Below, piece by piece: positions 1 through 30,153 of a DNA stretch of 64,000 bases (its first letter is position 1; each line of letters begins with the position of its first letter). The DNA is from a virus. Taxonomy: Duplodnaviria; Heunggongvirae; Uroviricota; Caudoviricetes. Below the pieces are notes generated by a model that was not told the DNA's origin, did no database searches, and saw only the letters and a list, made by a program, of their open reading frames with translations. Made by a program: the position numbers and the translations under genes. The stretch lies in IMG/VR virus record IMGVR_UViG_2648501802_000002; one strand, written 5' to 3'.

Positions 1-1
1 C

Positions 2-259: not shown

Positions 260-365
260 AAAGTAGCCCAGGCGTTAATGGATTACCTTTCCAGGCTAAG
301 CTCATTGCTCCTGTCAGATACGCAGCCCTGCCTGTAATAATACAGACTGGGCAATGTGTTGCCAC

Positions 366-695: not shown

Positions 696-775
696 CTCAT
701 CATATTTATTTTCTTCAATCAGACGATAAAACTTTTTAACCGTTTTGATATTTTCTTAAACAGACATATTGCACC

Positions 776-1765: not shown

Positions 1766-1780
1766 GCCATGGCCTCCGGG

Positions 1781-2557: not shown

Positions 2558-2772
2558 TTTAGCAAGTCCTGTATTGGTTAATAACCATCAGAGCCATATC
2601 ATGATGGCCTAATGTGATAATTATGATTAAATCAGGCCTGCCTGCCACTGAAATAATGCCATATTTGGATGATATCAGGCCATTCTTCTGGCTCTCAGGT
2701 TTCAGGAATATGTCTGCTGAAAGCGGGTACAGATCTGACGCATTGAAGGGAAGTATCGTCCTTTAAGGCTTA

Positions 2773-3162: not shown

Positions 3163-3351
3163 TAAATATATTATTTTTAATCTTAAATGATTGACAACTG
3201 ACAAGTGACTTGAGTCAGAATCATCACACGCCCGGTACGGATGGATCCCTTTTCAAATATTCCATGGACGGCACAGTCTGAGTACCGGGCGCTACCTTCT
3301 GTTGTATTGCTAAGCCGCCGCTGGTGGCTTTTCTTTTTTATAGGGGGCGAT

Positions 3352-3996: not shown

Positions 3997-4049
3997 GCAC
4001 AGTAATGAGGTGCTTAGATGTTAATATCAATATCCTAACTCTCTGCATC

Positions 4050-4739
4050 TCATAAATCTGATAGCCACTTACTATCTATGGACTCAATCTCCGTCAGCGG
4101 AATTGATGGGAAAAAATATCCCTGAGCGCCCCATAGCCCTATTCCTTTTGATAACTTATGACAATCAATGTTTTCGACGCCTTCAGCGATGATATTCGGA
4201 CATAACTTTTTTAAATTGCTAATAATGACATCAAAATGAGGCTTAATCATATGCTCTTGAAAAAATGACTTATCAAGTTTTATTGCATGGTATTTATTTT
4301 TAATTAATGCTTTCATGGTGGCGTTACCACTTCCAAAATCATCAAGCCAAACATAGTCTGTCAAAGTCAGGAGAAAGGGTATAACGTAATCCTCATCGCT
4401 TAAATCAGGGTAGTTTTCTGATATCTCAAGAACTATAAATTTATTGTTTTTAATTAACTCTTGAGTTTGTTTATTACTGTATATATATATACATGTATCA
4501 TAATCTACATTAATAGAACATAGTATATTATGGCGTTCAAAAAAACACTTGTATTTCATTATTGTGTTAAGTTGTGATTTAAGTAAATTAATCTTCATCT
4601 TATTGGTAAACATACCCAATACTCTTTGAGTAGGAAGAGCGACACCATCTTTGGAGCGAAATCTGCTTAACACTTCTACTGCAATCAACTTGTTCGTGCT
4701 CGTAGAAATGATTGGTTCTGCAATGTAGATAACTTCCAT
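4050..4739 (-). CDS. YdiV-like degenerate EAL-domain protein (AT-rich cargo)
   Basis: 229-aa ORF; aligns by eye to E. coli YdiV blocks (FIVLEISENYPDL vs FIELLINENYPHL; DDFGSGNATMKAL...KLDKSFFQE vs GNLGAGNSTMKAV...MLDKSFIQQ); very AT-rich relative to neighbours. Confidence 0.6.
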   Translation of the reverse strand: MEVIYIAEPIISTSTNKLIAVEVLSRFRSKDGVALPTQRVLGMFTNKMKINLLKSQLNTIMKYKCFFERHNILCSINVDYDTCIYIYSNKQTQELIKNNKFIVLEISENYPDLSDEDYVIPFLLTLTDYVWLDDFGSGNATMKALIKNKYHAIKLDKSFFQEHMIKPHFDVIISNLKKLCPNIIAEGVENIDCHKLSKGIGLWGAQGYFFPSIPLTEIESIDSKWLSDL

Positions 4740-4975
4740 ATCCCCACCCTCAAGTTTTAAATTGCTTGATTTTGCTCAGATAACGAGCCCCCTATATTTA
4801 CAAGAGTTACACTCTACTTTTGTAGATTAAATGTCAATTTATTTGTTTGTGATAATATTGAAAAATATCAATTAAAACAATCAAAAAATGTGACATAAAT
4901 CAATAATTTTATTTTTACACAACTTCTTGATTTCTGAGCCTAGCTATCTCTATTCTTATTCAAAGCCTCTTTAGA

Positions 4976-5710
4976 ATGGTGGTGGCCATGTCAGCAGTTT
5001 GTTACTTCATACTCATAAAGAAACCTATAAGCTTTCAATTTCTTAAGGATTTCTTAATATTAAATTATGGTGATGTGTTGTTGCTTAAGCATTCTGAGCA
5101 TGAATGCTTAAAAATCTATTCAGACAAATATATAGAATTCGAACTCAATGATAATACCGTAAGAAACTATTTATCATGCAACAACAACCATGGAAACCAA
5201 TCGCTGGATAAGTGTCCGCATTTGCTAAAAAAGTCTTTTGCCTATCCTGATTTATTAATCAGGATGATCGATAATATAAGCGATCAAAATCATATCCATT
5301 CTGATTTTAGGGAGGCAGTAACTTTTTCATTACTCTCAATTTTTAATGATGTTGATAACTTTAGAGCATTTCTTACGTCTGGTATGCCCACTTTCTCAGG
5401 GAAAGTGCGCAGCATATTTCTTTCAGATGTATCTAAACACTGGAAACTAAGAGACCTAACCGATTATCTCTACATGAGTGAAAGCTTAATAAAGAAAAAA
5501 CTATTATTGGAAAACACCTCCTTCAGTAAGTTATTACTTGATACACGGATGGCTTTTGCTATTAAATTACTAAAGCAAAATCATCCAGTCAAACAAGTAT
5601 CAGAAAGCTGTGGCTTTAGTAGTACATCGTACTTTGTGTGCCTGTTCAGGCAATATTATAATTGCACGCCACGTGAATATGCAAAACATCAATTATTATC
5701 TGGAAAATAA
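4976..5710 (+). CDS. AraC/XylS-family transcriptional regulator (GadX/AppY-like), AT-rich cargo
   Basis: 244-aa ORF; C-terminal AraC HTH (SESLIKKKLLLENTSFSKLLLDTRM...SSTSYFVCLFRQYYNCTPREY) close to GadX/AppY pattern; divergent from the EAL gene across an AT-rich intergenic region. Confidence 0.65.
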   Translation: MVVAMSAVCYFILIKKPISFQFLKDFLILNYGDVLLLKHSEHECLKIYSDKYIEFELNDNTVRNYLSCNNNHGNQSLDKCPHLLKKSFAYPDLLIRMIDNISDQNHIHSDFREAVTFSLLSIFNDVDNFRAFLTSGMPTFSGKVRSIFLSDVSKHWKLRDLTDYLYMSESLIKKKLLLENTSFSKLLLDTRMAFAIKLLKQNHPVKQVSESCGFSSTSYFVCLFRQYYNCTPREYAKHQLLSGK

Positions 5711-5748
5711 GATGCATTTATCTCCCAGATAATATTGTAATATTAAAC

Positions 5749-5997
5749 TCAGTCAGCATTTAGTAGCAGAGCATTATCTATGATGATCTGCTCCCATTCT
5801 TCGAATGCCCGGTCACGGACGCCCTGGGGAACACTGTTTGTTTTGAAATCAACGACTGTCCGCCATTTCCCGTCCGGACGGTACATGCGCAGAGCTTTAC
5901 TTCCCCCTTCCCTACGCACCTCAACGTTATGCTTGTCAGCAAACTCTTGTAATGCTCGTAGCGTCCCATGCTTTACTGTGTAGTATCGCTTTTTCAA
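5749..5997 (-). CDS. lxc: Small phage protein, lxc-like by position
   Basis: 82-aa ORF immediately downstream of the next ORF and two genes from darB, as lxc is in P1 by my recollection of gene order; no motif-level confirmation. Confidence 0.3.
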   Translation of the reverse strand: MKKRYYTVKHGTLRALQEFADKHNVEVRREGGSKALRMYRPDGKWRTVVDFKTNSVPQGVRDRAFEEWEQIIIDNALLLNAD

Positions 5998-6467: not shown

Positions 6468-9110
6468 TTATGCGTATTGTTGGATGACGGCCAGAACGTC
6501 CGCCACGTTGTGTTTTGTCTCGATAATCCACCAGTTACCCGGGAAATCGCTGTTCTTCGCCTTCGCTGGCAGCCAGCGAGCGCCGAATTTCGCCTTGATT
6601 GCGTCTTTCGCACGGAAAAGAACGCCTTTCATGCCTGAGGCTTCCTGAAGCCCAAATACCTCGCCAGCGGCGAATTTTGGTGCGTACATCATCTTCAGGT
6701 CGGCGGTGGATACGCGATAATTCAGACCTAGAGACTGAGCTATGCTGGTGGCATCACCCTGTATTGATGATAACTCTTCTTGTTTCTCGTTTCTGGCGGC
6801 AATCTCTTCCTCCGTGATGTTGCCAAGGGCCAGGTTTATCCGATCAGCGTCGGCCTGTTTCTCTTCATCGGTGCGCCCGGCAAGAACCGTGTTAATTCTC
6901 TGCAATATCTCCACATGATTCTTGCGCATGCTGAGCAATTCCGGCGTAACCTCGTTAAGATCCACCAGCCCAAGGATGGCAAGGTCGGAAAACATTGATA
7001 CCAGGTTGTAGGTCATGCGATAGCTGAGTTGACCATAGGCTGATGGCAACTTCACCGCATCCATTTGATAGGCATCCATAAATTTAGAGCCGTCGTTTAC
7101 GACATCCGCTATTGCAGGTGTGATTTTCCCTGTGGTGGCGGCCTCCCTGATTGCTGTTACCCACGATTGAGTCAGCGCGGCGACTGCATGATTCAGATTG
7201 GCTTCCCGTTCTGCTGCGATGCGCGCGCTTGCTGCGTCCATTGCCTGCTTGATCTCGGCTTTATTGCTGTAAATGCCAATGGTGCCAAACTGTGCTGTGG
7301 TGATCTCATAATCTGACGCCCGGAACTCATTGGTACCGAAAATGGCATTGGTGACTTCAAGTTCAGAATCCCCGTTACGAGTAGCCCCCTGGCTTGTTTT
7401 TTCCGGCATTCTGGCGATCGCATCCGCTATTTTCTCCTGAATTGCTTCAGGGGATAGCGTATCTCCGTATGACGCGATTACATCGCCATAATTGGAGCCA
7501 AACAATTCAACCAGGAATGTTTCTGCCGAACGGATCTGGCGGTTATTCCCTTCCGACATCATACCAAGCACCCATTTTGCAATTGACGACTTCAGCGCGA
7601 CGTCACGGCGATCCGGGTAAACCGCATGCTTCAGTGGGTCCGTATAGGTACCAACAAAATCAATGCTATAGCCTGACTCTGTAGTCTGAACGCCGTATGA
7701 GTCAGTGATTTTGATCATGCCGCGCTGCTGGAAACGGTAGAAATCGTCACAGGAAATGATGTCGTTAATCCCGGCGATGGAGACGCCGCCACTGATTTTC
7801 TGCATAACAGCATCTTCATCGGGAGTTACATCAACCTGTTTATCCAGCGTCTTCACATCCCAGTTACCCGATTTGGTACCTTTGAAGGTAAAGATAATCT
7901 CCACGTCTGCGCGCAGGCTGTCGAAGTCCAGCGACTTAATGCGAACGATATCACCGGCACAATCGTAGTATTGGCCTACACGCCATGAGCGATCGCCGAT
8001 AATAAGGAACTCACTCGCATGGTTAACCAGGTCAGGATCAACATCCAGAATGCCTTTATTTATTGCATCCTCCACCAGCGGGCGCAGGCGTTTGATATCC
8101 GTCGCGGCCTTCTGAGTACGGTTCAATAATTTCTCATAGCGGGAGATGGCTTGAGAGATATTAGCCTTGCGCTGAATGGCGCTTTTCAACGACGCGCGAT
8201 ACTGTGCTAACAACGTACGGTCTGTGTGATGGACGCTACCCCAGCGGGCTTTCCAGTCTGCGTTATCAGCTGCTTTGGCCATTACCGCCTGTTTGAATTT
8301 GGCGACGTCGGCGGTGGTCTTTTCAAGTTCCGCTTTGCTTCGCTCTAATTCAGCGGTAAGCACCTCCACATCCTCACCAGCTGCGTGCTGCGCCTTGATG
8401 TAGTTCTGAAGGTCGATAGTAGCCTGTTCTTTCTGGCGAGCGCGTTGCGCGGCTTTCGCCTTATCCATTTGAACCTGCATCATTGCCAGACGTTCGCCAT
8501 CATCCTTAGCGGTATACATCTGCATTTCGATCATATCGTTGGCGTCGGCGTTCTCCATTTCTGACTTATCTGAACGGAGGATATCGGAGATCCAACCTGC
8601 TTTACGCTTCAGCGTCTTCAGTCGGTATTCATCGAAAGAACCCTTGCCGCAGTAGTAGTGAACGCGAACGCTTGCACGGTTGGAACCAACTCGGGCACCG
8701 CGACCGTTACGCTGTGCGATACTGGCTGGTGTCCATGGCAACGTCAGATGATGGATGTCAGTCGTTCCTCGATGCAGGTTGATACCCACCTCTGCCTTTT
8801 TGTTGCAGATGATGATCGGAGTCCGGCCCTCCTGGAAGTCGGCTGCAATCTTTTCCAGACCGCCCAACGACATTTCATTTTGCTGCGCGATATAGGCGTC
8901 ATACAGAGCTATTTGCTCGTTGTATTTCGCTATCTGTGCATCTGTTGGTTCATCCGGTAACTCTTTCGGCGGTTTAACCGCTTTCAGTTTCTTACCGGTT
9001 TTACCTGCCTCGGCAACCGTCTGAGCATTCAGGATCCCCACCTTTGAAGGTTCAAGGTTAAGAGCATTGCAGATAATGCGCTTGAGCTTCTGGTGTTGCG
9101 TTTTTTTCAT
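6468..9110 (-). CDS. darB: DarB-like protein, C-terminal piece: helicase C-terminal domain and long tail
   Basis: 880-aa ORF with helicase motif VI-like segment (HHLTLPWTPASIAQRNGRGARVG); contiguous with the two upstream pieces if two single-base indels are corrected. Confidence 0.6.
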   Translation of the reverse strand: MKKTQHQKLKRIICNALNLEPSKVGILNAQTVAEAGKTGKKLKAVKPPKELPDEPTDAQIAKYNEQIALYDAYIAQQNEMSLGGLEKIAADFQEGRTPIIICNKKAEVGINLHRGTTDIHHLTLPWTPASIAQRNGRGARVGSNRASVRVHYYCGKGSFDEYRLKTLKRKAGWISDILRSDKSEMENADANDMIEMQMYTAKDDGERLAMMQVQMDKAKAAQRARQKEQATIDLQNYIKAQHAAGEDVEVLTAELERSKAELEKTTADVAKFKQAVMAKAADNADWKARWGSVHHTDRTLLAQYRASLKSAIQRKANISQAISRYEKLLNRTQKAATDIKRLRPLVEDAINKGILDVDPDLVNHASEFLIIGDRSWRVGQYYDCAGDIVRIKSLDFDSLRADVEIIFTFKGTKSGNWDVKTLDKQVDVTPDEDAVMQKISGGVSIAGINDIISCDDFYRFQQRGMIKITDSYGVQTTESGYSIDFVGTYTDPLKHAVYPDRRDVALKSSIAKWVLGMMSEGNNRQIRSAETFLVELFGSNYGDVIASYGDTLSPEAIQEKIADAIARMPEKTSQGATRNGDSELEVTNAIFGTNEFRASDYEITTAQFGTIGIYSNKAEIKQAMDAASARIAAEREANLNHAVAALTQSWVTAIREAATTGKITPAIADVVNDGSKFMDAYQMDAVKLPSAYGQLSYRMTYNLVSMFSDLAILGLVDLNEVTPELLSMRKNHVEILQRINTVLAGRTDEEKQADADRINLALGNITEEEIAARNEKQEELSSIQGDATSIAQSLGLNYRVSTADLKMMYAPKFAAGEVFGLQEASGMKGVLFRAKDAIKAKFGARWLPAKAKNSDFPGNWWIIETKHNVADVLAVIQQYA

Positions 9111-9657
9111 CGGTGAAGATGATTTGCTTACCTTCTGGGAAAAACTCCTTCAGCGTGGCAATCAGCTTCGCGTATTTGGGCGTAACGGGGTGAGTTACGG
9201 TCTGTTCGTCAATGCCAAACTTGGCCAGGCGCTTATTCACTTCCTGCTCAAATGCTTCCGGTACCTGCAACTGAATAAACTCGCCCTTATCTATCAGGGA
9301 GTATTGCGATTGCTGCGTGATTGAATCATCACTGTCGTCGTCTTCGCTGGTGGCTTGTTTGGGCAAACTGTCCGCCAGCTGCTGCACCGCATCGGCGTAC
9401 TCCGGCAGGAAACGATAGGTGATCCGGCGATAGTACAGGTCCATGTCAGTACATACGCGGTCCATATCCCTGATTATTGAGAAGATCGGACGGGCTTTCT
9501 CGTGCTCAATCACGCCGTCTTCATTGACCGAGGTCATTACGCCATTGTTGGCTTTGGCCGCCGCTTCCGCCTGCTGACGCAATTCTTCATACGCCGCCAG
9601 TTGTTCTTCAGTAAGTGGTGCATCCTGCTGGTGTTCGTCCAGCTCCGGGATCTCCAC
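9058..9657 (-). CDS. darB: DarB-like protein, middle piece (linker into helicase C-terminal domain)
   Basis: 199-aa ORF; open frame extends upstream to about 9738; ends ...KQIIFTDEK at a T7/A7 run (9101-9107) where the frame switches into the downstream piece. Confidence 0.45.
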   Translation of the reverse strand: MEIPELDEHQQDAPLTEEQLAAYEELRQQAEAAAKANNGVMTSVNEDGVIEHEKARPIFSIIRDMDRVCTDMDLYYRRITYRFLPEYADAVQQLADSLPKQATSEDDDSDDSITQQSQYSLIDKGEFIQLQVPEAFEQEVNKRLAKFGIDEQTVTHPVTPKYAKLIATLKEFFPEGKQIIFTDEKNATPEAQAHYLQCS

Positions 9658-9721
9658 GGTATCCTTAACGTCTTCCGCCGTTTTAAGCGTTACCCAGCGA
9701 TGGAATATACCGCGCAGCGCA

Positions 9722-11287
9722 TCAACCCGACAATTTCGCTATAGGACCGCGACCAGGATTACCAAAGCGGTCAATCTCTGCCTGCAAACGGGATACCAGA
9801 GAAAGGCGCTGCTGTTCGATTTGTTCAGCACTATGCCCGGCGGCCTTCATATCCTGATATTCAATTAACATCCGGCCAATCATCGCCCCGCGATACAAGC
9901 GTTCACGGTATTTTTCAGGCTGGCTGTTAATCCAGTCCACCAGCTGCACCATATCGTCGCTGATTGATGTGGTGTACTTATCGCGGACATTTGCCATCTG
10001 GGTAAATGTCATGCCGAGACGGCCTTCTGTTGTAGTCAGGTTACGCTGAAGAGCCTCCCAGCTATCCGCGCCATAACTGGCAGCATCGATCTTAAGTTCC
10101 TTCCCGGCATCAGCTTCAATCCAGCGACCACCAGCATATTTTTGCCATACGCCATTAATCAGGCGCATTTCCCCTTCACCAACAACGTCTGCGGTCGGTG
10201 ACGGTTCAGCCATATCGAGCAAAGACCAGTCGATACGGCTTTCGAAACGATGAATCAGCTTCGCTTTAAGAGCCTGGTTATCAATCTGACCGTCGGCACG
10301 AACCTCAATACGCCCCTGGAAGCCCTTTTCCTGGGTGCCATGAACAAACCGGCGGCCATCCTTTTCAAACCACTTGCCAGAAATAAACGTTGGCCAAAGC
10401 ACATTTGCCGATTCAAGAGTGCTTTCATCCACCAGGGGGATTTTCTCAGCCATCTCTGCCGGATGTTTGCGCATCAGCACCACATCAACGACTGTACTGG
10501 TCCCGTTTGCGTCAAAAGTACCGGTAGGCAAGCGGTGAGCGCCAAGAAATTCAGCTTTACGGGATAAGCGCAGGCGTAACCGCTTCATGTTTGAACCTGA
10601 AACAATGGACGGCGGCACAATCACGCACATGAATCCGCCTGGCTTTATCTTGTCCAGCATGCGGAGCATGAAGTAAGAACCCATGTCCGTTTCTTCTGCG
10701 TAAGGCTTATCGATGTTGCGTGTGTTATCACGACCGCCGAACGGAACGTTACCCACAACATGGTCGAATGAATCGTTAGGCGTGCTTATAGCCAGCTGTT
10801 CGAACGGGGAAATCTGTACGCTGTCTTCCGGGTGTAACAACTGGTTTATACGACCGGAAACACTGCTGATCTCAGTCGCGGTCATCACCGTACCAACCGG
10901 TTTTGTCTCATTAAAAACGCCGGTTCCCGCCGATGGTTCCAGAGTGTTACCTACGTCCGCGCCGTAGAGCTTCATGATCTCCCAGACACCTTCAGCGATC
11001 GGCTTTGGTGTGTAATATTCGGAGACGGACCCGCCAATGCCGCCTTCACCGGTGTACCCAGCCAGGATCTGGCGCTGTTCATCTGTCAGTGTCGCGCCGT
11101 CCACCAGCGAATTAAGCAAATCTATCGCCTTCTGATTCGCCTCCCGGCGCAGTCGGTCATAGCTTTTGCCTTCCACCTTTTCCACGCCGTATTTAATCGG
11201 CGCTCGGTGAGATGTTATTGCCCTAATGTATTTCAATATTTCGCTGACACTTGAACAGCAAAACACCCCCATAAATAGCTTGTTCAT
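9722..11287 (-). CDS. darB: DarB-like protein, N-terminal piece: N6-adenine DNA methyltransferase domain
   Basis: 521-aa ORF with amino-MTase motifs (YYTPKPIAEGVWEIM; VVGNVPFGG); reading frame continues into the next piece after a 1-nt shift near 9722-9738. Confidence 0.6.
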   Translation of the reverse strand: MNKLFMGVFCCSSVSEILKYIRAITSHRAPIKYGVEKVEGKSYDRLRREANQKAIDLLNSLVDGATLTDEQRQILAGYTGEGGIGGSVSEYYTPKPIAEGVWEIMKLYGADVGNTLEPSAGTGVFNETKPVGTVMTATEISSVSGRINQLLHPEDSVQISPFEQLAISTPNDSFDHVVGNVPFGGRDNTRNIDKPYAEETDMGSYFMLRMLDKIKPGGFMCVIVPPSIVSGSNMKRLRLRLSRKAEFLGAHRLPTGTFDANGTSTVVDVVLMRKHPAEMAEKIPLVDESTLESANVLWPTFISGKWFEKDGRRFVHGTQEKGFQGRIEVRADGQIDNQALKAKLIHRFESRIDWSLLDMAEPSPTADVVGEGEMRLINGVWQKYAGGRWIEADAGKELKIDAASYGADSWEALQRNLTTTEGRLGMTFTQMANVRDKYTTSISDDMVQLVDWINSQPEKYRERLYRGAMIGRMLIEYQDMKAAGHSAEQIEQQRLSLVSRLQAEIDRFGNPGRGPIAKLSG

Positions 11288-11353: not shown

Positions 11354-13084
<1,731 letters not shown>

Positions 13085-14340
13085 ACGGCAAACATTCCCA
13101 ATTCACAGAGTCCGACCTAAACCACATGAAGCGGCTTAGGAATTACAGACTCTCCAAGGGCTAACACTGCCAGCCCGGCAGCTTTTATATTACGGGCCGC
13201 GTTAATATCACGATCATGCTCTGCGCCACATTCCGGGCAGTGCCATTTACGAATATTAAGAGGCATTTTTTGCATGGTGAAGCCGCAACTGCTGCAACGT
13301 TTGGAAGAAGGGAAATACTGGTCGATAGCGACAATGCTACGTCCACCCCATTCTCCTTTGTACTGGAGTTGGCGTACAAGTTCGCTCCAGCCTGCGTCAG
13401 CTATTGCTTTAGACAGCTTCGGGTTACGGATCATGTTTTTCACTTTAAGGGATTCGACGCAAACAACTTGGTTTTCGTTAATCAGTTTGCGGGACAACTT
13501 ATGCAGGTTATCCATCCGACAATCGACTATTCTCGCGTGGAGGCGGGCAACCTTTAAACGTGCTTTGGCGCGGTTCTTTGAGCCTTTTTGTTTCTTGCTC
13601 AATCTGCGCTGTAACACTGCTAATCGCTTCGCGTATTTAGCGTTGTGTCGAGGATTGCCAGTTTTAAAACCGGTATCGGTGACGAACAAATCTTTTAAAC
13701 CAATATCAATGCCGACCGTGGAAACGGTGATCGGCAGTGATACAGGCTCAAACTCGCAGAGACAGGATACAAAATATCGTCCGGCAGCATCCCTGGTGAT
13801 AGTGACAGTGGATGGAGCAGACGGCAACGGACGGCTCCAGCGAACATCTAACGGCTCTTTGCTCTTTGCCATGTACAGCTTGCCGTCACGGTATTTAAAT
13901 GCGCTGGCAGTTAGTTCTGCGGCCTGTTTATGCCGCTTGCTCTTAAAAACTGGGTATGCAGCACGCCCGGCGAAAAAGTTAGCAAAAGCCGTTTGTTGGT
14001 GGCGCAGAGACTGCTGGAGGGGGACGCAGGAAACGTCATTCAGCCAAGCGAATTCTGGTTCTTTTTTCAGTGCCGTTAATTTGGCGCTGGCTTGTGCATA
14101 GCCGACCCTCTCATGGCGTGCGTAGTACGCATCGGTGCGCCAGCGAAGGAGGCTGTTATAGACAAAACGCACACACCCAAAAGTCCGGGCTAATAGCTCG
14201 GTTTGTTCGGGAGTTGGATAGAATCGATATTTATAGGCACGCTTCATGTTCTATATAATACATTGAAACTAATGAGTATATAAATGAATACACGGACGAA
14301 AATGTTATCAAAGCCAATATACCAACAGACATTAGGTAAG
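13085..14340 (-). mobile_element. IS200/IS605-family insertion sequence (tnpB-only, IS1341-like); ends approximate
   Basis: Single TnpB ORF without tnpA, inserted between the prt-like and pro-like genes; element boundaries not mapped, taken as the flanking intergenic space. Confidence 0.4.
13117..14247 (-). CDS. tnpB: TnpB (IS200/IS605 OrfB) RuvC-like RNA-guided endonuclease
   Basis: 376-aa ORF; N-terminus MKRAYKYRFYPTPEQ typical of OrfB; C-terminal zinc finger CSSCGF...CPECGAEHDRDINAARNI. Confidence 0.8.
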   Translation of the reverse strand: MKRAYKYRFYPTPEQTELLARTFGCVRFVYNSLLRWRTDAYYARHERVGYAQASAKLTALKKEPEFAWLNDVSCVPLQQSLRHQQTAFANFFAGRAAYPVFKSKRHKQAAELTASAFKYRDGKLYMAKSKEPLDVRWSRPLPSAPSTVTITRDAAGRYFVSCLCEFEPVSLPITVSTVGIDIGLKDLFVTDTGFKTGNPRHNAKYAKRLAVLQRRLSKKQKGSKNRAKARLKVARLHARIVDCRMDNLHKLSRKLINENQVVCVESLKVKNMIRNPKLSKAIADAGWSELVRQLQYKGEWGGRSIVAIDQYFPSSKRCSSCGFTMQKMPLNIRKWHCPECGAEHDRDINAARNIKAAGLAVLALGESVIPKPLHVV

Positions 14341-14359
14341 GTAGCTGGAGGGCAATATA

Positions 14360-15423: not shown

Positions 15424-15678
15424 TTATCGCCTTCGTGCCATATATTTGCGCACCGCGCGGCGTGGACAATCTGAAGCGGTTTCTTTCTGCTGCATCAATC
15501 TCGCAGCCATGCTCAAAAATGTCAGGCACAGCCGAAGCCCGGCATACAATAGCGGTTCCAGTGGCCACGTCTCATTGAGCACATATACCGCCATGAAAAT
15601 CGAGTCAAAAACTATCGCCGCCAGCGATAACTTCATTGTCGAAAGTCGGCGGAGCTGCCGGAGTTTATTCATTGACAA
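15424..15678 (-). CDS. Small hydrophobic protein (possible membrane protein) downstream of lyz
   Basis: 84-aa ORF with hydrophobic stretch LSLAAIVFDSIFMAVYVL; overlaps lyz stop; coding status uncertain. Confidence 0.25.
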   Translation of the reverse strand: MSMNKLRQLRRLSTMKLSLAAIVFDSIFMAVYVLNETWPLEPLLYAGLRLCLTFLSMAARLMQQKETASDCPRRAVRKYMARRR

Positions 15679-16222
15679 GCCCCGTCAGGCAAAGCTGGCG
15701 TTCTTTTTCACGGCGAATCTTTAAACCTCGCAGGGGCACGCCGTTACTGTTCACGAAATCAGGGAGATGGTTACACATATTCACCCATTCCCCTTTCTGC
15801 GCCCACTTGTGGATGGACGTTTCTACTCGCATGCCTCGCGCTTTGCTGTAGTAGGTCCGTAAGCTATTGCATCCCATATTGAATGCCGCGCTTGTCATTG
15901 CACTGAAGGCATTATCGGGCATGTCTTTGCCCCGGAAGTGCTGATTAATACAGCGTTCAGCGATCAGGATATTCTTTTCCCAATCAGCGGCGATTTGCTG
16001 GTCGGTTTTTCGCACACCCGGCGTTACCCCGTGTGTATTACCGATCCCGTCAGTCCATACCCCCGCCGGGCACATGTATGGATCACGTCGGCAACCTTCA
16101 GCGTTACCAATCTGCTCAAGCCCCGCCTGGTTGGTTCGCACATTGCCATTACCCATCACGATGGTAATCATCACCGCGATAGCGCAAATTGCACCGCCTC
16201 CTGCGGCTGTTTTTCCCTTCAT
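15665..16222 (-). CDS. lyz: P1 Lyz-type SAR endolysin (glycoside hydrolase family 24 lysozyme)
   Basis: 185-aa product from internal ATG: MKGKTAAGGGAICAIAVMITIVMGNGNVRT (signal-arrest-release domain) then ...NAEGCRRDPYMCPAGVWTDGIGNTHGV; matches my memory of P1 Lyz including the three regulatory cysteines. Confidence 0.8.
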   Translation of the reverse strand: MKGKTAAGGGAICAIAVMITIVMGNGNVRTNQAGLEQIGNAEGCRRDPYMCPAGVWTDGIGNTHGVTPGVRKTDQQIAADWEKNILIAERCINQHFRGKDMPDNAFSAMTSAAFNMGCNSLRTYYSKARGMRVETSIHKWAQKGEWVNMCNHLPDFVNSNGVPLRGLKIRREKERQLCLTGLVNE

Positions 16223-16355
16223 AAAGACCTCATAAGCGAATTTTTTACGCTCCAGGACAAACACCCATTCACAGCCAATACCGACTGACTCGATCCCTTT
16301 AGAAGGCACAGGATAATGCAAATCACTTGTTAGCTACGTTTCAAAGATATACATT

Positions 16356-16372
16356 ATTGCTCTAATTAATTT
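16356..16372 (+). promoter_or_regulatory. P1 C1 repressor operator-like 17-mer upstream of ssb
   Basis: ATTGCTCTAATTAATTT, 16/17 match to the C1 operator consensus ATTGCTCTAATAAATTT as I recall it. Confidence 0.35.
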
Positions 16373-16391
16373 ATTTTATTAGGTAAGATAA

Positions 16392-16880
16392 GTGGCACAA
16401 CGCGGTGTAAACAAAGTCATCCTGATTGGTACCCTGGGGCAAGACCCGGAGATCAGGTATATACCAAATGGCGGAGCGGTCGGAAGACTCAGCATCGCAA
16501 CGAATGAATCATGGCGCGACAAGCAAACTGGCCAACAGAAAGAGCAAACAGAATGGCATAAAGTCGTTTTGTTCGGAAAACTTGCTGAAATTGCGAGTGA
16601 ATATTTACGAAAAGGTTCTCAGGTCTACATCGAAGGGAAACTTAAAACCCGTAAGTGGACAGATGACGCCGGTGTAGAACGTTACACGACGGAAATTATC
16701 GTCAGCCAGGGCGGCACCATGCAAATGATCGGCGCTCGCCGTGACGATTCACAGTCCTCAAATGGCTGGAGGCAATCAAACCAACCTCAAAACCACCAGC
16801 AATACAGCGGTGGCGGTAAACCTCAGAGCAACGCCAATAACGAACCTCCAATGGACTTTGACGACGATATTCCGTTTTGA
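16392..16880 (+). CDS. ssb: Single-stranded DNA-binding protein
   Basis: 162-aa ORF; OB-fold N-terminus ([18 protein letters not shown]...[30 protein letters not shown]), Gly/Gln-rich linker, acidic tail DFDDDIPF. Confidence 0.85.
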
Positions 16881-17077
16881 ATGTGTAAAAAACGACTGAA
16901 AGAAAAGCGGTGGTCCAAACGCCAACAAAAGCACGAACTCGCTAAAAAACGCCAAAGTTGGCAATGGCACGCGCTTTTCACGAAAAGAACACCCCGAGAT
17001 ATTGCTTTCGCTGGTGGGAAAACATTCCTGACCCACCTGAAGGCGCAATACATCAGGTTTTAAGCAGAGGAAAGACT

Positions 17078-17755
17078 ATGAATAACATGACAACGAAAGA
17101 GCTTTTGACGGCACTTCCAAAATACAAAAGCCATAAAACAGTTCGTGCCTCAAAAATCAAAGATATCGAAATTATCGCCCTAATGGATGTGGTCCTTCTT
17201 TGCAACATCGAAGTCGTTGAGCCAGAAGGGGTAAAAGTCCATGTTGATAAAATGTTTTTGCAAAAACACCGACCAGAAATTGGCGGATATCTGGTCGCTT
17301 ACGAGGACGGATCTCTGTCCTATTCACCAGAAAAAACATTTGAAGAAGGCTTTAGTCGGACTAACGACTTCTTCGAAAATGGGGTATCGCTCAGCATTGA
17401 AGGTCACAACGGGGTGACATTCATTACAGCCAAGGACGTAACTATTTCTGCTGGCGGTATCGCTACTCTACAAGAAGAAATCGACCTTGAAGCAGCCGAC
17501 TTTTCTGACGCGCTGATGTGGCTGAAGGATGGCAAGAAAGTTGCTCGACGCGGGTGGAACGGCGAAAACCAATTCTGCTGGCTGGTTCCTGAAGGACAGT
17601 ACCCGGCACGAATGGAAGCCATTAAGGGATATTTCCCCGGCGACCTCGTTCCGTATGGTGCTTATTTCGCCTTAAAAAATGCACAAGGTGTAGTTGTTCC
17701 GTGGGTTCCTTCTGTAGGCGACTTACTGGCATGTGACTGGTTTGTAGTGGAGTGA
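17078..17755 (+). CDS. Two-domain phage protein with C-terminal DUF2829-like (Tad2-like) domain
   Basis: Start at ATG 17078 with AGAGGAAAG ribosome-binding site; C-terminal segment FSDALMWLKDGKKVARRGWNG...VVVPWVPSVGDLLACDWFVV fits the DUF2829 pattern as I remember it. Confidence 0.5.
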   Translation: MNNMTTKELLTALPKYKSHKTVRASKIKDIEIIALMDVVLLCNIEVVEPEGVKVHVDKMFLQKHRPEIGGYLVAYEDGSLSYSPEKTFEEGFSRTNDFFENGVSLSIEGHNGVTFITAKDVTISAGGIATLQEEIDLEAADFSDALMWLKDGKKVARRGWNGENQFCWLVPEGQYPARMEAIKGYFPGDLVPYGAYFALKNAQGVVVPWVPSVGDLLACDWFVVE

Positions 17756-18887: not shown

Positions 18888-21864
18888 TATTTAGCTCCTT
18901 TGCCACACCTAATAACAGTTCCAGCAATCCGTCACCATTCATCAGTGATGCGGCAGCGGCCTCTTTGTCATGATACAACTGAAGAGCCATAGAGAACACT
19001 TCCGTTGCTGACGTTTTGGAAATTGTCGGAGATTTGTGTCGAAATTTACCAGAATTACTCACTGAGACAGGCGGGTATACCTTCGCCATATAAATATCAC
19101 TCAATCGAGATCTGAAGCACCATTCAGGCTTGCCACGCCCACCGATATTAACGAAAGATGGCTTATCCCCTTCAACATTGGCCTTCAGGAATGACCTGGC
19201 TTTCTCTAACAAACCCGGGTTACTGTACTCAAGATGATGACCCAGCTCGTGCCACAGTGCATTTGCATTTTCATCGTGCAAATCGACAGCAACAACACCA
19301 TTAAGATTTGCATACGCCCTACCCTTGTGGTGAATTACCCTTGATAAGGTTGATATTTTCCCGCCGGTCAGGCGATAAATATCAGCAAGTTCCTTGCGCA
19401 GGTCTATTCCACCATTCTGTCCAGCGCGGGCTTCTTCCACTTCTTCCGTGATAAAAGAGTCGGCCCACTCAAGAGCTTTTTCTTCTGATACGGATGAGTT
19501 GGTGATCGCACTGTTCATGGCAGATAACACTTTCTCGTAGACCGAATCCATACTTCGCTGATTCATTTGCCAGCGTTTCTGCGGGATATATGAAAATCGA
19601 TTGAGTAGCTGGTCAAGCTGCTCAAGTTCTTCTTCACTGACATGCTTTTTAGCCTCACCAATAATGCTGGGGAGAATAATGCCGTTAGGATTAAACGCTC
19701 GCGAAAGGAAGAGTTTCAGCGCCCCCATGCCCTCCGATGCTTCAATATCACCAATAACACGGTTAACAATGGCCGCATTCTTCGGATTAACGTCCTCCAA
19801 CGCCCTAGCTACGATTTGCAGGGACGATACGACCTCACGCTGCATATCCGTCCTGATCTCATCAATTAACTCTGGCGTTATGCCGTGCTCTTTAAGGATA
19901 TCCCGGCCTTCCGCCGTTACCCCATCGATATCACCGACATGTTTATTAACACGACTTTGCAATGCCTTAAATGCCTTCAGAATTCCACGGGCATCATCCG
20001 CTTTACTAACGGCCTTCCTGAATGCTGGCAAGAAGTCTGAGTTAACCTCATTTTGTTGATCGGCCCACTGAATGGAGGCTTCCTTCATCTCGTCCAGAGT
20101 CAGATCACCCAACGCGGTATGGTCTGTGAATATGAGCGATAACCTCTGAACCATTTCTGCCAATGGTGATACTGATTGCGCCGCGCTAAGGAATGCTTTC
20201 ACCCTGGTTGGGCGAATGGAAAACCAGTCAATAGCTGGTGGCATATCTCCGTTTTGTATCGCCTGCGCTATCTCATCAAAGCCGTCGCGCCCAAGGGAGG
20301 ATGCGTGATTTAACAATCCGCGAAGTAACGAATTGCTGATACCGAATAATCGGCACCATTTATTCACGTCGGCAACAGGCATTCGAACAAAATGCGCAAG
20401 CACTTGTACAAGCTGTTCATCCTGGGGATCTCTACGGGAAAGCAGCCTTATCAGATGAATAATGTCTTTGATGCCGGATGACCGATGTAATAGCAAGCTG
20501 GTATATGGAGCAACACCGTTGTAACTACCGCCGGAAACGGACTCGAAAAGACCGCCTGATATCCCTTGCATGCCTTCGTTTTCCAGTTCCTGAGACACCT
20601 GGCGAAGGATATCCTGTAACGACACATCACCACCGCCAAACATATCCCCCAGCGCCTGGCCCTGGTGCTGTAACTCATCATTGATACGTTGAGCCATCAA
20701 TTTAAAGGCGGTGGCCATACGCTTCGCGCTACGGTTATTCGCGACGATGAACAACGCGAGAGCTTTCACTTCCGGGGCTGTTTCGCTGAACATATCCCCC
20801 TGAGCAATGACATCGGTAATATGCTGGCCTGACTCCTTCGATTGCCTTACCAGGTCTACCGCATCTTTCAATGCCGCCAGCGCCTTTTTATCGAGGCTAT
20901 CCGCTGTCTCAATGCCATCAACAATAGTTGTCACAGCCTGCTTGTGCGCTTCTCCTGATAAAGCCTGCATCTGGACAAAATCATTGGCTGCCGCATTAAG
21001 CGCCGTCAGAACATTACGCATATCCGGATCAGGTTCTTCTGCAACCATCCTTACCAGGCGCGCATCCTTATATGCCTTGGCAAAGATCGCGTTTTGTATA
21101 CGGTCTACAAGTTGCCGCGTTGGTCGCCCATCTTCCGTTACAAGGCCAGCAGCCTGTGTGGCACCAACTTGCGTCATGAATCCGCGAATAAACGCGTCAT
21201 TACTGCGGCTAAGCAGATCTCCACTTTCTGACGGGTTAAACAACGCCATCATCGCCGGTGTTATGCTGTCGGCATCAACAAAAGCCTTTTCACTGGCTGC
21301 CATTTCCTGGAGATCAGAAATATTTGAGTCCTTGGCAAACTGAACACGGTCAGCCTTCGTTAACCGGCGGCGCACCAGTACCGGAGCCGTCATTGATTCA
21401 ACCTTTTCAGGCCGTATGCCGAATTCGGTCGCATGTTCAATCAGGTACTCCCGATACCGATCCGCATTACCGTCCTGATAGGCTTTAATGATCCCCATGG
21501 TCCGCCCATTACCTGACTCAACGGCATTGTCCTCACCAATTATTGGCGCGCCATGGCTGGATAAACCGGAATCGGTAAGCTGGGCAGGACGCAAATCCTT
21601 GGATATCTGGTTGACCTGAAGAAGGCTGGATGCGCGGGTCCGGTCGCGCGGCTGAAGTTCCTGGGGATAGTCTGGATTAATTTTCCCATCCAGAGTATTG
21701 GATACCAAAAGAACTGAGGCATCGACGATATCAAACGCTGTTTTTACCTCGTCTCCCTTCGCTGTCACCACATACGAAACCCGCCCGTAATCGGGCAGGT
21801 TTTTTAGCAGCTCGATCAGCGTTTCTATGCTGGTGGCCATCACCACCTGATCGCTTAAGCTCAT
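18877..21864 (-). CDS. ddrB: DdrB-like large capsid-associated antirestriction protein with HExxH motif
   Basis: 995-aa ORF; contains HELGHH (zincin-like); size and position (last large gene of the lydA operon) match my recollection of P1 DdrB. Confidence 0.5.
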   Translation of the reverse strand: MSLSDQVVMATSIETLIELLKNLPDYGRVSYVVTAKGDEVKTAFDIVDASVLLVSNTLDGKINPDYPQELQPRDRTRASSLLQVNQISKDLRPAQLTDSGLSSHGAPIIGEDNAVESGNGRTMGIIKAYQDGNADRYREYLIEHATEFGIRPEKVESMTAPVLVRRRLTKADRVQFAKDSNISDLQEMAASEKAFVDADSITPAMMALFNPSESGDLLSRSNDAFIRGFMTQVGATQAAGLVTEDGRPTRQLVDRIQNAIFAKAYKDARLVRMVAEEPDPDMRNVLTALNAAANDFVQMQALSGEAHKQAVTTIVDGIETADSLDKKALAALKDAVDLVRQSKESGQHITDVIAQGDMFSETAPEVKALALFIVANNRSAKRMATAFKLMAQRINDELQHQGQALGDMFGGGDVSLQDILRQVSQELENEGMQGISGGLFESVSGGSYNGVAPYTSLLLHRSSGIKDIIHLIRLLSRRDPQDEQLVQVLAHFVRMPVADVNKWCRLFGISNSLLRGLLNHASSLGRDGFDEIAQAIQNGDMPPAIDWFSIRPTRVKAFLSAAQSVSPLAEMVQRLSLIFTDHTALGDLTLDEMKEASIQWADQQNEVNSDFLPAFRKAVSKADDARGILKAFKALQSRVNKHVGDIDGVTAEGRDILKEHGITPELIDEIRTDMQREVVSSLQIVARALEDVNPKNAAIVNRVIGDIEASEGMGALKLFLSRAFNPNGIILPSIIGEAKKHVSEEELEQLDQLLNRFSYIPQKRWQMNQRSMDSVYEKVLSAMNSAITNSSVSEEKALEWADSFITEEVEEARAGQNGGIDLRKELADIYRLTGGKISTLSRVIHHKGRAYANLNGVVAVDLHDENANALWHELGHHLEYSNPGLLEKARSFLKANVEGDKPSFVNIGGRGKPEWCFRSRLSDIYMAKVYPPVSVSNSGKFRHKSPTISKTSATEVFSMALQLYHDKEAAAASLMNGDGLLELLLGVAKELNNAD

Positions 21865-25518: not shown

Positions 25519-25590
25519 AAGTTCCCTCCTACGTTGTCAGGAGGTAATGGTATGCAAAGTAACTTCTCAACCGGTCATGTTACTTGACAT

Positions 25591-25616
25591 CCTCCACGTC
25601 CTTTAGAGCGTGGAGG
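25591..25616. other. 8-bp perfect inverted repeat hairpin immediately 5' of the intron-like element
   Basis: CCTCCACG-(10 nt loop)-CGTGGAGG, 4 nt upstream of the GTGCG start at 25621. Confidence 0.4.
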
Positions 25617-25620
25617 ATGT

Positions 25621-26460
25621 GTGCGCCCAGCATGGGCGCGATCTTGGAGGTGAAAGCCCTCCCGCGAGCTGACCACAGCGAGCGAAAGGAAGTGCAACTG
25701 CGTGAGGGCGGCTAGGCGTGGGGAGGAAGCACGGAATGAACCCGTGAGCCGATGAACAAGAATCGGATATGAGGCGCGATGGAGCAAGGCGAGCAGGCAC
25801 ATCACTGCGAAGCTTTCGTGACAAAGTCGCGTAGATCCGACGGTTGTGCGGGGAAGGATCGCGTTCTTACCTGGGGAGTTCTCGCCTCATGCCTGAAAGG
25901 GCAACGTCGTAAGACGGAGCGAGAAGTCAGCAGAGGCCGTAGTAGTCAGGACTCCGACGAAGGGCCGAACGAGAAGGAAAGCCAAAAGATATGACTCTTG
26001 ACAGGACATTGCGTCAGAAGCCGGGGAAGCCCGGTACGGACCCGCATGCCGGGTGGTGTGGCAGGGGCGCAGCCTTGTGCTCCCCCCTATGCCGATCAAG
26101 CAGAACATTGTGCTGGGCCTCTGACGCATCTCCTTGATGGTCTTGGCATCGTGCTTAAGTGGATTGGTGTCGTCTCTGATAGGCTCATGGAGGCAGAATG
26201 AAACTCAAAAATCCGGGACAGCACGCAAAACAGGCTGCACAAAAAGCGCAGGTTGCGTAGGAGTGGAATCCCGCTCCCAAAAAATGGTGCAGAAGTTGCG
26301 GCAGTGGTCATCCGACGCACTGGAAAATAACAAACCCGCCGTGACCAGAATCGGAGGCCTGAGGGAGTGACCGTAAAACCGGATAACCCAGGCAGCAAAT
26401 ACCCGCTGGATGAGGCATGGTTCCGGCAGATAATACCGAAAACCGCCAGACACACTGGAT
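25621..26460 (+). mobile_element. Group II intron 5' fragment (domains I-III-like RNA, no intact maturase ORF); 3' boundary approximate
   Basis: Starts GTGCGCCCAGCATGGGCG (compare Ll.LtrB GTGCGCCCAGATAGGGTG); shares motifs GCGAAAG, AATCGG, GTCGC and CGTAGTAGTC...GAAGGG with LtrB domains I-III; GNRA-rich; only short ORFs on either strand. Confidence 0.5.
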
Positions 26461-26516
26461 AATCAGTAGAAATAACCCATTAAAATCATTATAATAATTG
26501 GGCACATTATTATATT

Positions 26517-27080
26517 ATGCTGAATAATAGAGACATGAATATTAATGAACTTAAAGACTGTATTCACTATGAAGTAATCGGTAGCGAGCGTCCTTTCTCC
26601 TGGCGAAAGGCAATTGTTCGCGCAATAAAACATAGAAGAGTTCGTTATTTATTTTGGTGGCGCATAGCCAAATACCTTTTTGATAAAGGCGGATACTGTC
26701 GGAAGATTGCGGGGAAAATGGAACGTTTCATTCTTGATAAATATAGTGTAACAGTCCCTTTAACTGTAAATATAGGGAAAGGCTTTGATATTTCTTATCT
26801 CAACGGTGTTGTTATCGGTCACAAAGTAACCATTGGTGAAAATTGTTCAATAAAACCAGGGGTAACTATTGGGCTACGTGGTGATTTTAATGATATGGAT
26901 ATTGTTATAGGACATAATGTGACCATTGGTTGTAATGCCACCATTCTTGGTGGCAAAGTGCGTATAGGAAACAATGTCACAATAGGTGCTCATGCATTGG
27001 TATTGCATGATATTCCTGATGATTCAACATTCATCACTAAATTTCAGTCTGAAGTTATCTGCTCGTCCTCTTGCACATAA
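26517..27080 (+). CDS. Hexapeptide-repeat (left-handed beta-helix) acetyltransferase, AT-rich cargo
   Basis: 187-aa ORF with tandem hexapeptide repeats ([23 protein letters not shown]...[34 protein letters not shown]); 3' end overlaps the convergent tfa stop by 37 nt. Confidence 0.7.
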
Positions 27081-27661
27081 CCCTGATTCATCAGCTCTGG
27101 CCATACGATATCCGGAGCTGTACTGGTGTCAATTCGACTCACTAATACTCTGTATTTTCTCCAGGAATCCAGTTGTGAATTTTCCTCGGTTGTTGCTATT
27201 TCAAGATTAACTGCATCCTGCAGAATTGCGATGTTATCTGTTGCCTCCTGAATCAACCTTGCCTTTTTCTCTTCCGCTTCCCGTATCCGAAACAGTTTTT
27301 CTGCTTCCTCATCCTTCACCCAGGATACGCCGTCCCACTTCTGATACTCCCCTGCTGGCGACAACCAGGTGACATTCTCTGGTAACGGTCCGAGTTCAGA
27401 AATAAACAACGCGTCCCCCGATGCCACGTCATAGACCGTTTTACCACGATGGTCTTCAACAATAATCCATGATTCATTTTCACTGTTAAAAACTGCCACA
27501 AAGCCAGCAGGAATTTCCGGTGGGGCGATATCTGTAGAATTAGCTGGTAGCCCTGTATGAGGTGGAATATATGCGTCACCTTCACCAATAAACTCATTAG
27601 TTCCGGCGAGCAGGTTATAAATTTTTACAGTACGTGATTGTTCACTCATTCTGAATGCCAT
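27044..27661 (-). CDS. tfa: Tail fibre assembly protein (lambda Tfa-like) with altered C-terminal tail
   Basis: 205-aa ORF; [60 protein letters not shown]... nearly matches lambda Tfa; last about 16 residues differ. Confidence 0.8.
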
Positions 27662-28552
27662 TATGCAAGCCTCACAATATAATTAAATGCGATGTTTTTA
27701 ACGGTGTTTTCCGAGTTACCAGCAGCGTTAACGGTGATGGTGTGTCCATGTGAACCAATCGCAACAGAGTGCGTATGAGCGCCAATATCAACTGTATGTG
27801 CATGCGCCCCTGCACTTGCAGCGGTGCCTGATACTGAGTGGGTGTGTGCACCAGAAGAAGGCACAGTTCCATTCCCCACCACAGTGCCGCTTGATGAGCC
27901 ATCAAGCCAGTCGAAATTCATACCGCCACCATCTGGTCTCCTTAATGGAACGGTATGAGTATGTGCGCCAGCACTATTTGCAGTACCAGATACATTGTGG
28001 GTATGTGCACCTGTGTTATTCGTTGATTTAGTACCGTAATCAAACGAAGATGTGGTTTTCGTACCCAAATCCGTATTGGATGCGCTGGCGCTGTGGGTGT
28101 GCGATTTAATGCCATCCTGTTCCAGAGACAATACGTCCCGACCACTGGCGGGTTTGCCCTTGATTGTCCAGCCACGCATATCCGGGATCACGCCTGACGG
28201 ATAAGCGGCTGCAAGTTTCGGGTATGCAGATTTGTCAAAAGTCTGTCCCTGCATCAGGGCGTAACCAGACGGCACAGTATCTGATGGCCACGGATGCGGA
28301 ACACCAACAGGAAGGACCTCAATATCCCCGGAACCATCAAACGAAACGTTATTAATTTTACGGGCTGTTTTCAGCTTTGTAGCCGTTGAGGCATTGCCGG
28401 ACAGCTCACCAGAAATGCCACCAACAACTGTTAGATCACCAGTTATTGTGCCGCCTGAACTTTCCAGTTTTTTAGCAACATCACTCTTAATAGAGTCGAT
28501 TTCTTTTTTTCAGATTAGTTATATCTGCTGGTATCGTTGTCACTGTTGCCAT
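27661..28552 (-). CDS. Tail fibre receptor-binding protein (lambda Stf C-terminal domain-like); frame broken at an A7/T7 run
   Basis: ATG at 28552 ([16 protein letters not shown]) then frame switch at T7 run 28504-28510 into ...[40 protein letters not shown]...[11 protein letters not shown], which matches lambda Stf C-terminus. Confidence 0.6.
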
Positions 28553-28725
28553 ATTAATTCCTTACGCCCATTCCCGCAGCGGTTGTTCTAATTGAACTTC
28601 AAAACCATCAAACATTTGTTGTTTCAAACTGTTGTTTAAAATACGAACATTAACGAAGAAGCCATCATTTTTAATCACTGTTGGTTCTTCGTTCTCGCCG
28701 TTTGGTATTTCGGTATATGTAACAC

Positions 28726-30153
28726 CTACAACATCAAGAAGAATGTTGTTTTGCAGCTCTTCATTATCGTGGTGCCGAGTTCTCTTAAACCAAGGTATTG
28801 GATAACAGCAAGGACGCTTGTTTTGGACAGAATATCGCGACCGACTGACGTTAAGTCAGTCTGAGAAACAGTGTCTGTACCGGTAAAGTACGGCAGTTTA
28901 TTTGCGCCTGTAGCAAGACCAGCAAGCGCGGTTAAAGTTGCATCCAGAGGCTGTTTGCCTGCCAGCGCATTTGTCATTGTTGTCGCAAAGTTCGGGTCAT
29001 TACCAAGTGCTGCGGCAAGCTCATTCAGGGTATCAAGAGCTTCTGGTGATGAACCAACCAATGCGGATATGGCAGCTCTTACATAAGCAGTCGTAGCAAT
29101 CTGCGTATTATTTGTGCCCTGCGCAGCCGTAGGCGCAGTAGGGACTCCCGTTAATGCAGGGCTTGCCAAAGGCGCTTTGAGGGCTAGGGCATTGTTGATA
29201 GTTGTGCTGAAATTCGGGTCGTTATTGATCGCAGCAGCTATTTCTTTAAGCGTATCCAGTGTGCCAGGTGCACCGTTGATAAGTGCCGTTATAGCTGACT
29301 TAACAAAGGCTGTATTTGCGATCTGCGTGCTATTTGTACCTTGCGCTGCCGTCGGCGCGGTTGGCGTTCCTGTCAGACTCGGGCTTTCTATTGGCGCTTT
29401 GGTATCAGCAAGACCTTTTACAGACTTAACGGCTTTAGGGGTAGCCGCCATTGTTTCGCTGTCGCTGTTAGTTTCGCTACTGAGCTGAACTAATCCCTTT
29501 TGCGTTGTGCTTGCATCCTGTGCCGTATACTTGCTTTTCGCCAGATCGTAGGCTTTTTTAGCTGCCAGCGAACTTGCAGCAACATCACTTCTGCTACTGG
29601 TTACAGAGTCTGAAATATCAATGCCGATCGTGCGGTTAATACGCTCGGATGTATCAATCATCTCCTGGGTAATGGCTGATACGCCAGCAGGGATATTCAC
29701 CGTACAAACAAGCAGCTCTCCATCTCCTAACTGATATGAATCGGTATAGGTTCTGGCAACAAATTCAGCCGCATGAATATGTGACGCGGTATTAACCTGA
29801 TAGGTATCCTCTCCAAGGAGGTATCTTCCCTTCAGCACAATTGCATATTTCTTGCCTTCACTAAGTGCAAGAGAAATATCCTTACGGTGCCGAATAGTTA
29901 CCTGGTAGAATTCACCAATATCCACTGACGCAGCGCCAGCAGTTTTATCACCATCCACTGAGGTGATTAACAGGTTCATACCACCGCCAGGCTTCGGCAG
30001 GAAACCGGCATAAAACCCAGGATCAACAATTCCCCTGAATTTTCGGTTTAGCGCGGCTGACAGATATGGTTCGTGGTATTGCACATCAGCCACCAGAGCC
30101 AGTGACTCGGGCGATGGGTAAGTAACTGATGTAACAACTGTAACGTCATTCAT
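28726..30153 (-). CDS. Tail fibre protein, constant part (P1 S / lambda Stf middle-region-like)
   Basis: Start at ATG 30153 (MNDVTVV...); contains fibre repeats GTPTAPTAAQGTN.TQIANTAFV and ...TALAGLATGANKLPYF...GRDILSKTSV as in lambda Stf; frame ends 12 codons after the crossover site. Confidence 0.6.
   Translation of the reverse strand: MNDVTVVTSVTYPSPESLALVADVQYHEPYLSAALNRKFRGIVDPGFYAGFLPKPGGGMNLLITSVDGDKTAGAASVDIGEFYQVTIRHRKDISLALSEGKKYAIVLKGRYLLGEDTYQVNTASHIHAAEFVARTYTDSYQLGDGELLVCTVNIPAGVSAITQEMIDTSERINRTIGIDISDSVTSSRSDVAASSLAAKKAYDLAKSKYTAQDASTTQKGLVQLSSETNSDSETMAATPKAVKSVKGLADTKAPIESPSLTGTPTAPTAAQGTNSTQIANTAFVKSAITALINGAPGTLDTLKEIAAAINNDPNFSTTINNALALKAPLASPALTGVPTAPTAAQGTNNTQIATTAYVRAAISALVGSSPEALDTLNELAAALGNDPNFATTMTNALAGKQPLDATLTALAGLATGANKLPYFTGTDTVSQTDLTSVGRDILSKTSVLAVIQYLGLRELGTTIMKSCKTTFFLML
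28773..28798. other. Din-family DNA invertase crossover site (gix/cix/hix-like 26-bp dyad) inside tail fibre gene
   Basis: TTCTCTTAAACCAAGGTATTGGATAA: 12-bp inverted half-sites around a central AA; lies where the fibre constant region ends. Confidence 0.5.
28885..29420. repeat. Tandem repeats of about 180 bp within tail fibre gene; coordinates approximate
   Basis: Protein-level repeat (...PTAPTAAQGTN.TQIA.TA.V..AI.AL...P..LDTL.E.AAA..NDPNF.TT..NALA.K.P) occurs twice, with matching DNA repeats. Confidence 0.4.

Follow-up and report, generated by a model that had tools for sequence, protein, structure and literature searches.

The lysogeny repressor C1 of bacteriophage P1 acts through about twenty dispersed operators, which are scattered over approximately 94 kb with the c1 gene at one end, and Op21 is one of them. 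Velleman et al. 1987, Eliason & Sternberg 1987 and Lehnherr et al. 1999 are reportedly the primary footprinting papers. The asymmetric consensus of the C1 operator reads ATTGCTCTAATAAATTT, and the co-repressor Lxc strengthens the binding of C1 to its operators (PMC8546580). The operators Obana/Op72a, which carries the exact consensus, Oc4/Op51 and OrepL/Op53 have the core ATTGCTCTAAT and an AT-rich tail in common with Op21 and, like Op21, overlap a sigma-70 promoter and respond to the same repressor acting together with Lxc (PMC8546580). Op21 differs from the other P1 C1 operators in its target gene and in having a T at position 12, where the consensus has an A, and it is monovalent, whereas Oban and Oc1 are bivalent. 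The gene ssb has been listed among the C1-controlled genes that are induced upon heat inactivation of C1.100 (PMC4713147), and the operator motif in front of it is an ordinary, long-known feature of P1.

Comparative analysis of the stretch of viral DNA presented here (the window, 64 kb in full length) revealed that positions 2831-37565 are colinear with P1 2306-45247 (7 blastn blocks, 94-98.5% identity), so that this part of the window is Punavirus-like; its best overall matches are P1-like plasmids. Upstream of the ssb gene of this segment, the sequence-only reading had noticed a 17-mer that departs from the C1 operator consensus at a single position. This observation was borne out: the 17-mer ATTGCTCTAATTAATTT occupies positions 16356-16372 on the plus strand, within the interval 16340-16392, and matches the consensus at 16 of 17 positions with T in place of A at position 12 as the sole mismatch. 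It is separated by 19 nt (16373-16391) from the GTG start codon of ssb at 16392. The features of the region are as follows.

15665-16222, minus strand: lyz, divergent lysozyme gene
16310-16328, minus strand: LPlyz, Lpa-dependent late promoter of lyz (19/19 match to P1 20969-20987)
16327-16355, plus strand: P2ssb (former Pr21), sigma-70 promoter (29/29 match to P1 20986-21014), with the -35 element TTGTTA at 16327-16332, a 17-nt spacer and the -10 element TACATT at 16350-16355
16356-16372, plus strand: operator Op21/Ossb, its first base directly after the -10 element of P2ssb
16362-16389, plus strand: P1ssb, predicted second promoter (28/28 match to P1 21021-21048)
16392-16880, plus strand: ssb, phage single-stranded DNA-binding protein, GTG start, 162 aa

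The resemblance to the consensus is far beyond the level given by chance, as a window of 64 kb, counted on both strands, should by chance contain about 5e-4 sites with no more than one mismatch. A scan with an operator weight matrix, which the sequence-only reading had suggested, was performed with a matrix trained on the 19 other annotated P1 operators, Op21 being excluded from training. The 17-mer obtained the highest score of the window (26.0 bits), compared with a top score of 21.0 and a mean maximum of 13.1 in shuffled controls (n=100). Scores of the annotated P1 operators range from 6.2 to 28.1, and the Op21 17-mer ranks sixth among all hits of the matrix in P1. An accidental similarity in an AT-rich promoter region, devoid of regulatory meaning, might be proposed for a site in whose surroundings a generic scan finds no strong promoter. 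This idea was rejected as extremely improbable in view of the expected number of sites per window and of the identity of the 17-mer, in sequence and in position, with a named and annotated operator of P1 and P7, which stays invariant while its flanks vary.

Judged by sequence and position, the 17-mer is the P1 operator Op21/Ossb itself and not merely an operator-like sequence. It is identical to and aligned with P1 NC_005856 21015-21031, annotated as the monovalent C1-controlled operator Ossb (formerly Op21), and with AF125376 5683-5699, annotated as operator 21 (Op21), the binding site of the major P1 repressor C1. In P7 the same 17-mer is annotated as Op(ssb) (AF503408 24773-24789) and aligns column for column. 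The 189-nt intergenic region between lyz and ssb shares 99% identity with P1, rising to 100% from 16307 through the ssb start. Against P1 Op21/Ossb with Pr21/P2ssb (also M25412), all 17 bases are the same and no difference is seen at the site; the distance of the operator to the -10 element, the ribosome-binding region, the GTG start, the divergent lyz and LPlyz are shared as well. The sequence-level hallmarks of the P1/P7 C1 operator set, i.e., consensus match, orthology and promoter overlap, are all present.

In a megablast search with positions 15600-17100, 19 phages of the P1 type aligned to at least 80% of the query with 95-99% identity; two unrelated phages of Salmonella were also hit, over just 3% of its length. 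The 17-mer shows no variation among 8 P1-like elements, including P1, P7, SJ46, RCS47, vB_EcoM-813R1, the CH427 plasmid and the chromosomal copy of NCCP 15734, while some of the flanking positions vary. In phage P7 and in the Punavirus phage-plasmids SJ46 and RCS47 both the 17-mer and the promoter are identical to those of the window, with a few substitutions between operator and start codon; for example, P7 shows an A to G and a T to A exchange, and SJ46 has ATG in place of the GTG start. A search for more distant, diverged copies of the intergenic region found none between 500 plasmids at 95% identity or more and matches of 60-80% confined to the ssb coding sequence; the evidence of conservation is hence restricted to close relatives.

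The gene and its promoters are equally well preserved. Over its 162 aa, the encoded Ssb shares 99.4% identity with P1 Ssb, and it matches the Pfam SSB family with an E-value of 6.6e-40. The -35 element of P1ssb lies within the operator, and the P1 record marks this promoter as predicted only. A generic sigma-70 consensus scan of positions 16150-16950 called no promoter, a silence that is uninformative because P2ssb fits merely 8 of 12 consensus positions.

The sequence-only reading had made its proposal depend on the presence of other operator-like sites in the island, and one is indeed present. P1 2306-45247 contains just two annotated C1 operators, Omat/Op2b and Ossb/Op21, and both are intact in the window. 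The orthologue of Omat/Op2b and the genes associated with this part of the regulatory circuit are located as follows.

3153-3169, plus strand: Omat/Op2b orthologue CATGCACTAATAAATAT, 17/17 match to P1 2628-2644, second-best hit of the weight matrix (21.1 bits)
3241-3996: mat, downstream of Omat
5749-5997, minus strand: lxc (bof), gene of the C1 co-repressor, its product 100% identical to P1 Lxc (82 aa)

Two of the three lxc promoters, P1lxc and P2lxc, are unchanged from P1. Five Lpa-type late promoters (LPmat, LPpro, LPlyz, LPdar and LPs) are retained with 0-1 mismatches, which indicates that most genes of the segment depend on Lpa and not directly on C1; a tblastn search of the window gave no match for lpa. 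Relative to P1, the segment lacks Oref and LPsit. A third operator-like 17-mer, ATTGCCCTAATGTATTT, was observed on the plus strand at 11217-11233 (16.3 bits, 3 mismatches), within the 5' end of darB and about 85 nt upstream of LPpro. P1 has the same 17 bases at 17166-17182, where they are not annotated as an operator, and its conservation is uninformative because the site lies in coding sequence.

Taken together with what is established for P1, the arrangement very probably represents ordinary immunity in cis, in which the Op21/Ossb operator would serve to repress ssb under the control of a C1 repressor encoded by the element's own c1 gene just outside the window. C1 bound at Op21 would cover the region of the P2ssb transcription start and the -35 element of P1ssb, and by blocking RNA polymerase it would keep ssb silent in the lysogen, with the Lxc co-repressor encoded in the window presumably tightening the binding. 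Upon induction, inactivation of C1 would permit early transcription of ssb and possibly of the genes downstream of it, and the derepressed gene would provide phage SSB for lytic replication. In this scheme, binding of C1 to the 17-mer is assumed from the annotation of the identical P1 sequence, and control of ssb by C1 is transferred from the literature on P1 (PMC4713147).

Directly downstream of ssb, a plus-strand gene at 17078-17755 encodes a protein of 225 aa with a Pfam Tad2-like/DUF2829 domain (Thoeris anti-defense 2, E-value 1.6e-22); Tad2 corresponds to DUF2829 (bioRxiv 10.1101/2023.05.01.538930). P1 is devoid of this stretch of about 685 bp, and a deletion that fused the two flanking ORFs seems to have given rise to P1 isaA. 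No terminator-like site was detected on the plus strand between the ssb stop codon and position 18550. The Tad2-like gene may therefore share the C1-controlled promoter of ssb and be transcribed together with it, as an anti-defence gene of the early phase.

Outside the immunity sites, our comparison with P1 revealed several differences, which mark the element as damaged or rearranged. The differences comprise replacement of res/mod, a cargo insert between c8 and ref, a broken darB, a TnpB element between prt and pro, the additional Tad2-like gene after ssb, the absence of cin and the C-segment, and an end of homology inside pmgB. An EAL-domain protein and an AraC-type regulator (approximately 3861-5753) occupy the place of EcoP1 res/mod, and with the cargo replacement at 1-2768 both Oref and the initial 60 codons of ref have been lost. 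The gene darB, coding for an anti-restriction methylase/helicase, is a pseudogene on the minus strand at 6468-11287, split into three ORFs of 880, 199 and 521 aa as compared with 2255 aa in P1, and lacks about 1.9 kb of the P1 sequence (P1 13725-15663). The insertion of approximately 1.28 kb between prt and pro (13070-14347) is of the IS200/IS605 type and contains only a TnpB/OrfB_IS605 gene (13117-14247, minus strand) and no tnpA. Both prt and pro stay open, and about 18 nt of P1 sequence (19001-19018) are present on both sides of the insertion. Similar IS609 insertions have been reported in P1-like plasmids (PMC6906374).

The stretch of P1 from lydC through cin and the invertible C-segment (P1 31243-36458) was found to be replaced at window positions 25578-28770, where P1 cin gave no blastn match. 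The replacement contains a 5' fragment of a group II intron, recognized at 25702-25965 by Rfam D1-D4 hits of 95.5 and 46.8 bits, a gene for a hexapeptide acetyltransferase (26517-27080) and, where relatives have annotated tail fibre/tail fibre assembly genes, two ORFs at 27044-28275. This arrangement is common to 35 PLSDB plasmids.

On the right-hand side, homology to P1 ends abruptly inside pmgB at 37565, pmgB being matched from aa 37 only. Beyond this point lie an N-terminal fragment of a truncated lambda-type stf and then, up to the end of the window, a lambdoid siphovirus late region with lom, J, tail, head, terminase and lysis genes. Across the junction, the baseplate/tail-fibre genes of P1 and the late operon of the lambdoid part both run in the minus orientation. 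Three-way alignment showed that the junction at 37565/37566 is blunt, with an overlap of 1 nt and no IS. A 63-nt pattern spanning it had no exact match in the genome, viral or metagenome contig collections, the junction was absent from all complete E. coli genomes and PLSDB plasmids searched, and exact-protein look-ups for the junction ORF (with two start choices), Sit and J found nothing on record. Either illegitimate recombination, as a rare event, or a chimeric assembly would account for the junction. Within the lambdoid late region, between the lysis genes and terminase, an additional cargo was observed on the minus strand at 58811-62140.

58811-59764, minus strand: TET-associated glycosyltransferase (TAGT)
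59736-60527, minus strand: ParB_N-domain protein
60665-62140, minus strand: TrkH-family cation transporter

The ParB_N-domain protein and the TAGT are a hint of a DNA-modification module.

The sequence-only reading had also stated that the window holds no c1 gene, and this was confirmed. A tblastn search with P1 C1 gave no significant match, and phmmer --max against all six-frame segments of the window gave nothing better than an E-value of 3.8; a diverged C1 homologue hidden in the window was rejected on the latter ground. Coi, Ant1, Lpa, RepA, RepL, ParA/B, Cre, PacA, gp23, gp22 and Tub likewise had no tblastn match in the window, and genes for the major capsid and sheath proteins are missing from it. 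A full P1-like (Punavirus) backbone would comprise immC, immI, repL, repA/par, lpa, pac and the head, sheath and tube genes, of which the window represents only the part corresponding to P1 2306-45247. The backbone genes absent from the window could lie outside it, and the element is rearranged but not necessarily dead. The description of the element as a remnant is partly justified by the truncation of P1 homology within pmgB on the right, by the decayed darB and by the IS element between prt and pro, and is not supported as far as it was deduced from the missing c1.

The left edge of the window falls inside the cargo insert between c8 and ref, and the left end of the window has the following content.

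1-2830: cargo insert, with a resolvase pseudogene and genes for an ester cyclase, a GlxA-type regulator and an MBL-fold hydrolase

P1-like plasmids have been described that carry this insert between c8 and mat (PMC6906374). In the best-matching CH427 plasmid and in the NCCP 15734 chromosome, c1 is found 3.3-4.1 kb to the left of the base aligned to position 1, with c8, cre, cra and coi in between. Among 10 distinct contexts encoding the exact GlxA protein of the window, a C1 gene (PF27008) is present on the left side in 8. It lies 4.05-4.9 kb past the GlxA gene in 7 of these contexts and approximately 6.6-7.5 kb past it in the remaining one, where an IS21 insertion shifts c1 outward by about 2.6 kb, i.e., to approximately 5.9-6.7 kb beyond the equivalent of window position 1. 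In the other 2 of the 10 contexts the c1 side has been lost to transposon/IS replacements. The context L016, in which c1 has its usual distance, shows 100% identity to window positions 1-2768. Every relative with an uninterrupted backbone on this side thus carries c1 at 3.3-4.1 kb, once at approximately 5.9-6.7 kb, further left. Since most relatives carry c1 on this side at a short distance from the insert, its absence from the window is best explained by the window boundary and is most likely an edge effect of where the window stops; with c1 only about 3.3 kb beyond the edge in the closest relatives, the absence is uninformative about the element. We infer that the cognate c1 is situated just beyond the window, approximately 3.3-4.1 kb to the left of position 1.

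The position of c1 in the relatives also bears on the proposal of the sequence-only reading that a P1-like prophage elsewhere in the cell controls the remnant in trans. According to this proposal, the element would be a c1-less remnant whose ssb and mat genes are repressed by the C1 of another P1-like plasmid prophage in the same cell. As a diffusible protein, C1 can reach operators on other replicons, and operator-bearing plasmids alter the lysogeny decision (PMC8546580). The 64 kb hold no c1, the segment is degraded and cut off on the right, and the window is without repA/par, so that such a remnant would be compatible with a resident P1. However, the window is cut off within the P1 backbone, and in the closest relatives c1 follows only about 3.3 kb beyond this point, no sign of a second P1-like element was seen, and with only two directly C1-controlled promoters the remaining expression would hinge on lpa. 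Control in trans is physically possible but not needed for the explanation, and we regard it as very unlikely. The 2 of 10 related contexts in which the c1 side was lost to transposons, together with the broken darB and the right-hand truncation, could instead suggest a cell without C1, in which the site would be vestigial and ssb and the genes behind it would be transcribed constitutively from P2ssb. The operator, both promoters and the ssb frame are nevertheless untouched, which fits recent decay or continued selection, and c1 is adjacent in most relatives; an orphan operator of this kind appears very unlikely.

A related scenario takes the junction at 37565 into account. A c1-less P1 fragment may have been fused there to a lambdoid prophage, leaving the unit of Op21 and ssb, possibly with the Tad2-like gene, either constitutive or switched by the C1 of a co-resident P1-like plasmid, which it would at the same time slightly titrate. 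This scenario is unlikely; if true, a constitutive Op21-ssb unit would supply the host with extra SSB and an anti-Thoeris sponge. Repression of ssb in cis by the element's own C1 through Op21 is the reading we prefer over these alternatives.

The value of the present finding is mostly that of correct annotation, as Op21 belongs to the well-established parts of the immunity circuit of P1. It also carries a lesson about window edges: with operators dispersed over approximately 94 kb and c1 at one end, a 64-kb window of P1-like DNA will often show operators without the repressor. Should the element truly be without c1, it would provide a small case of prophage-remnant genes wired to the repressor of another phage, which would be a modest curiosity.
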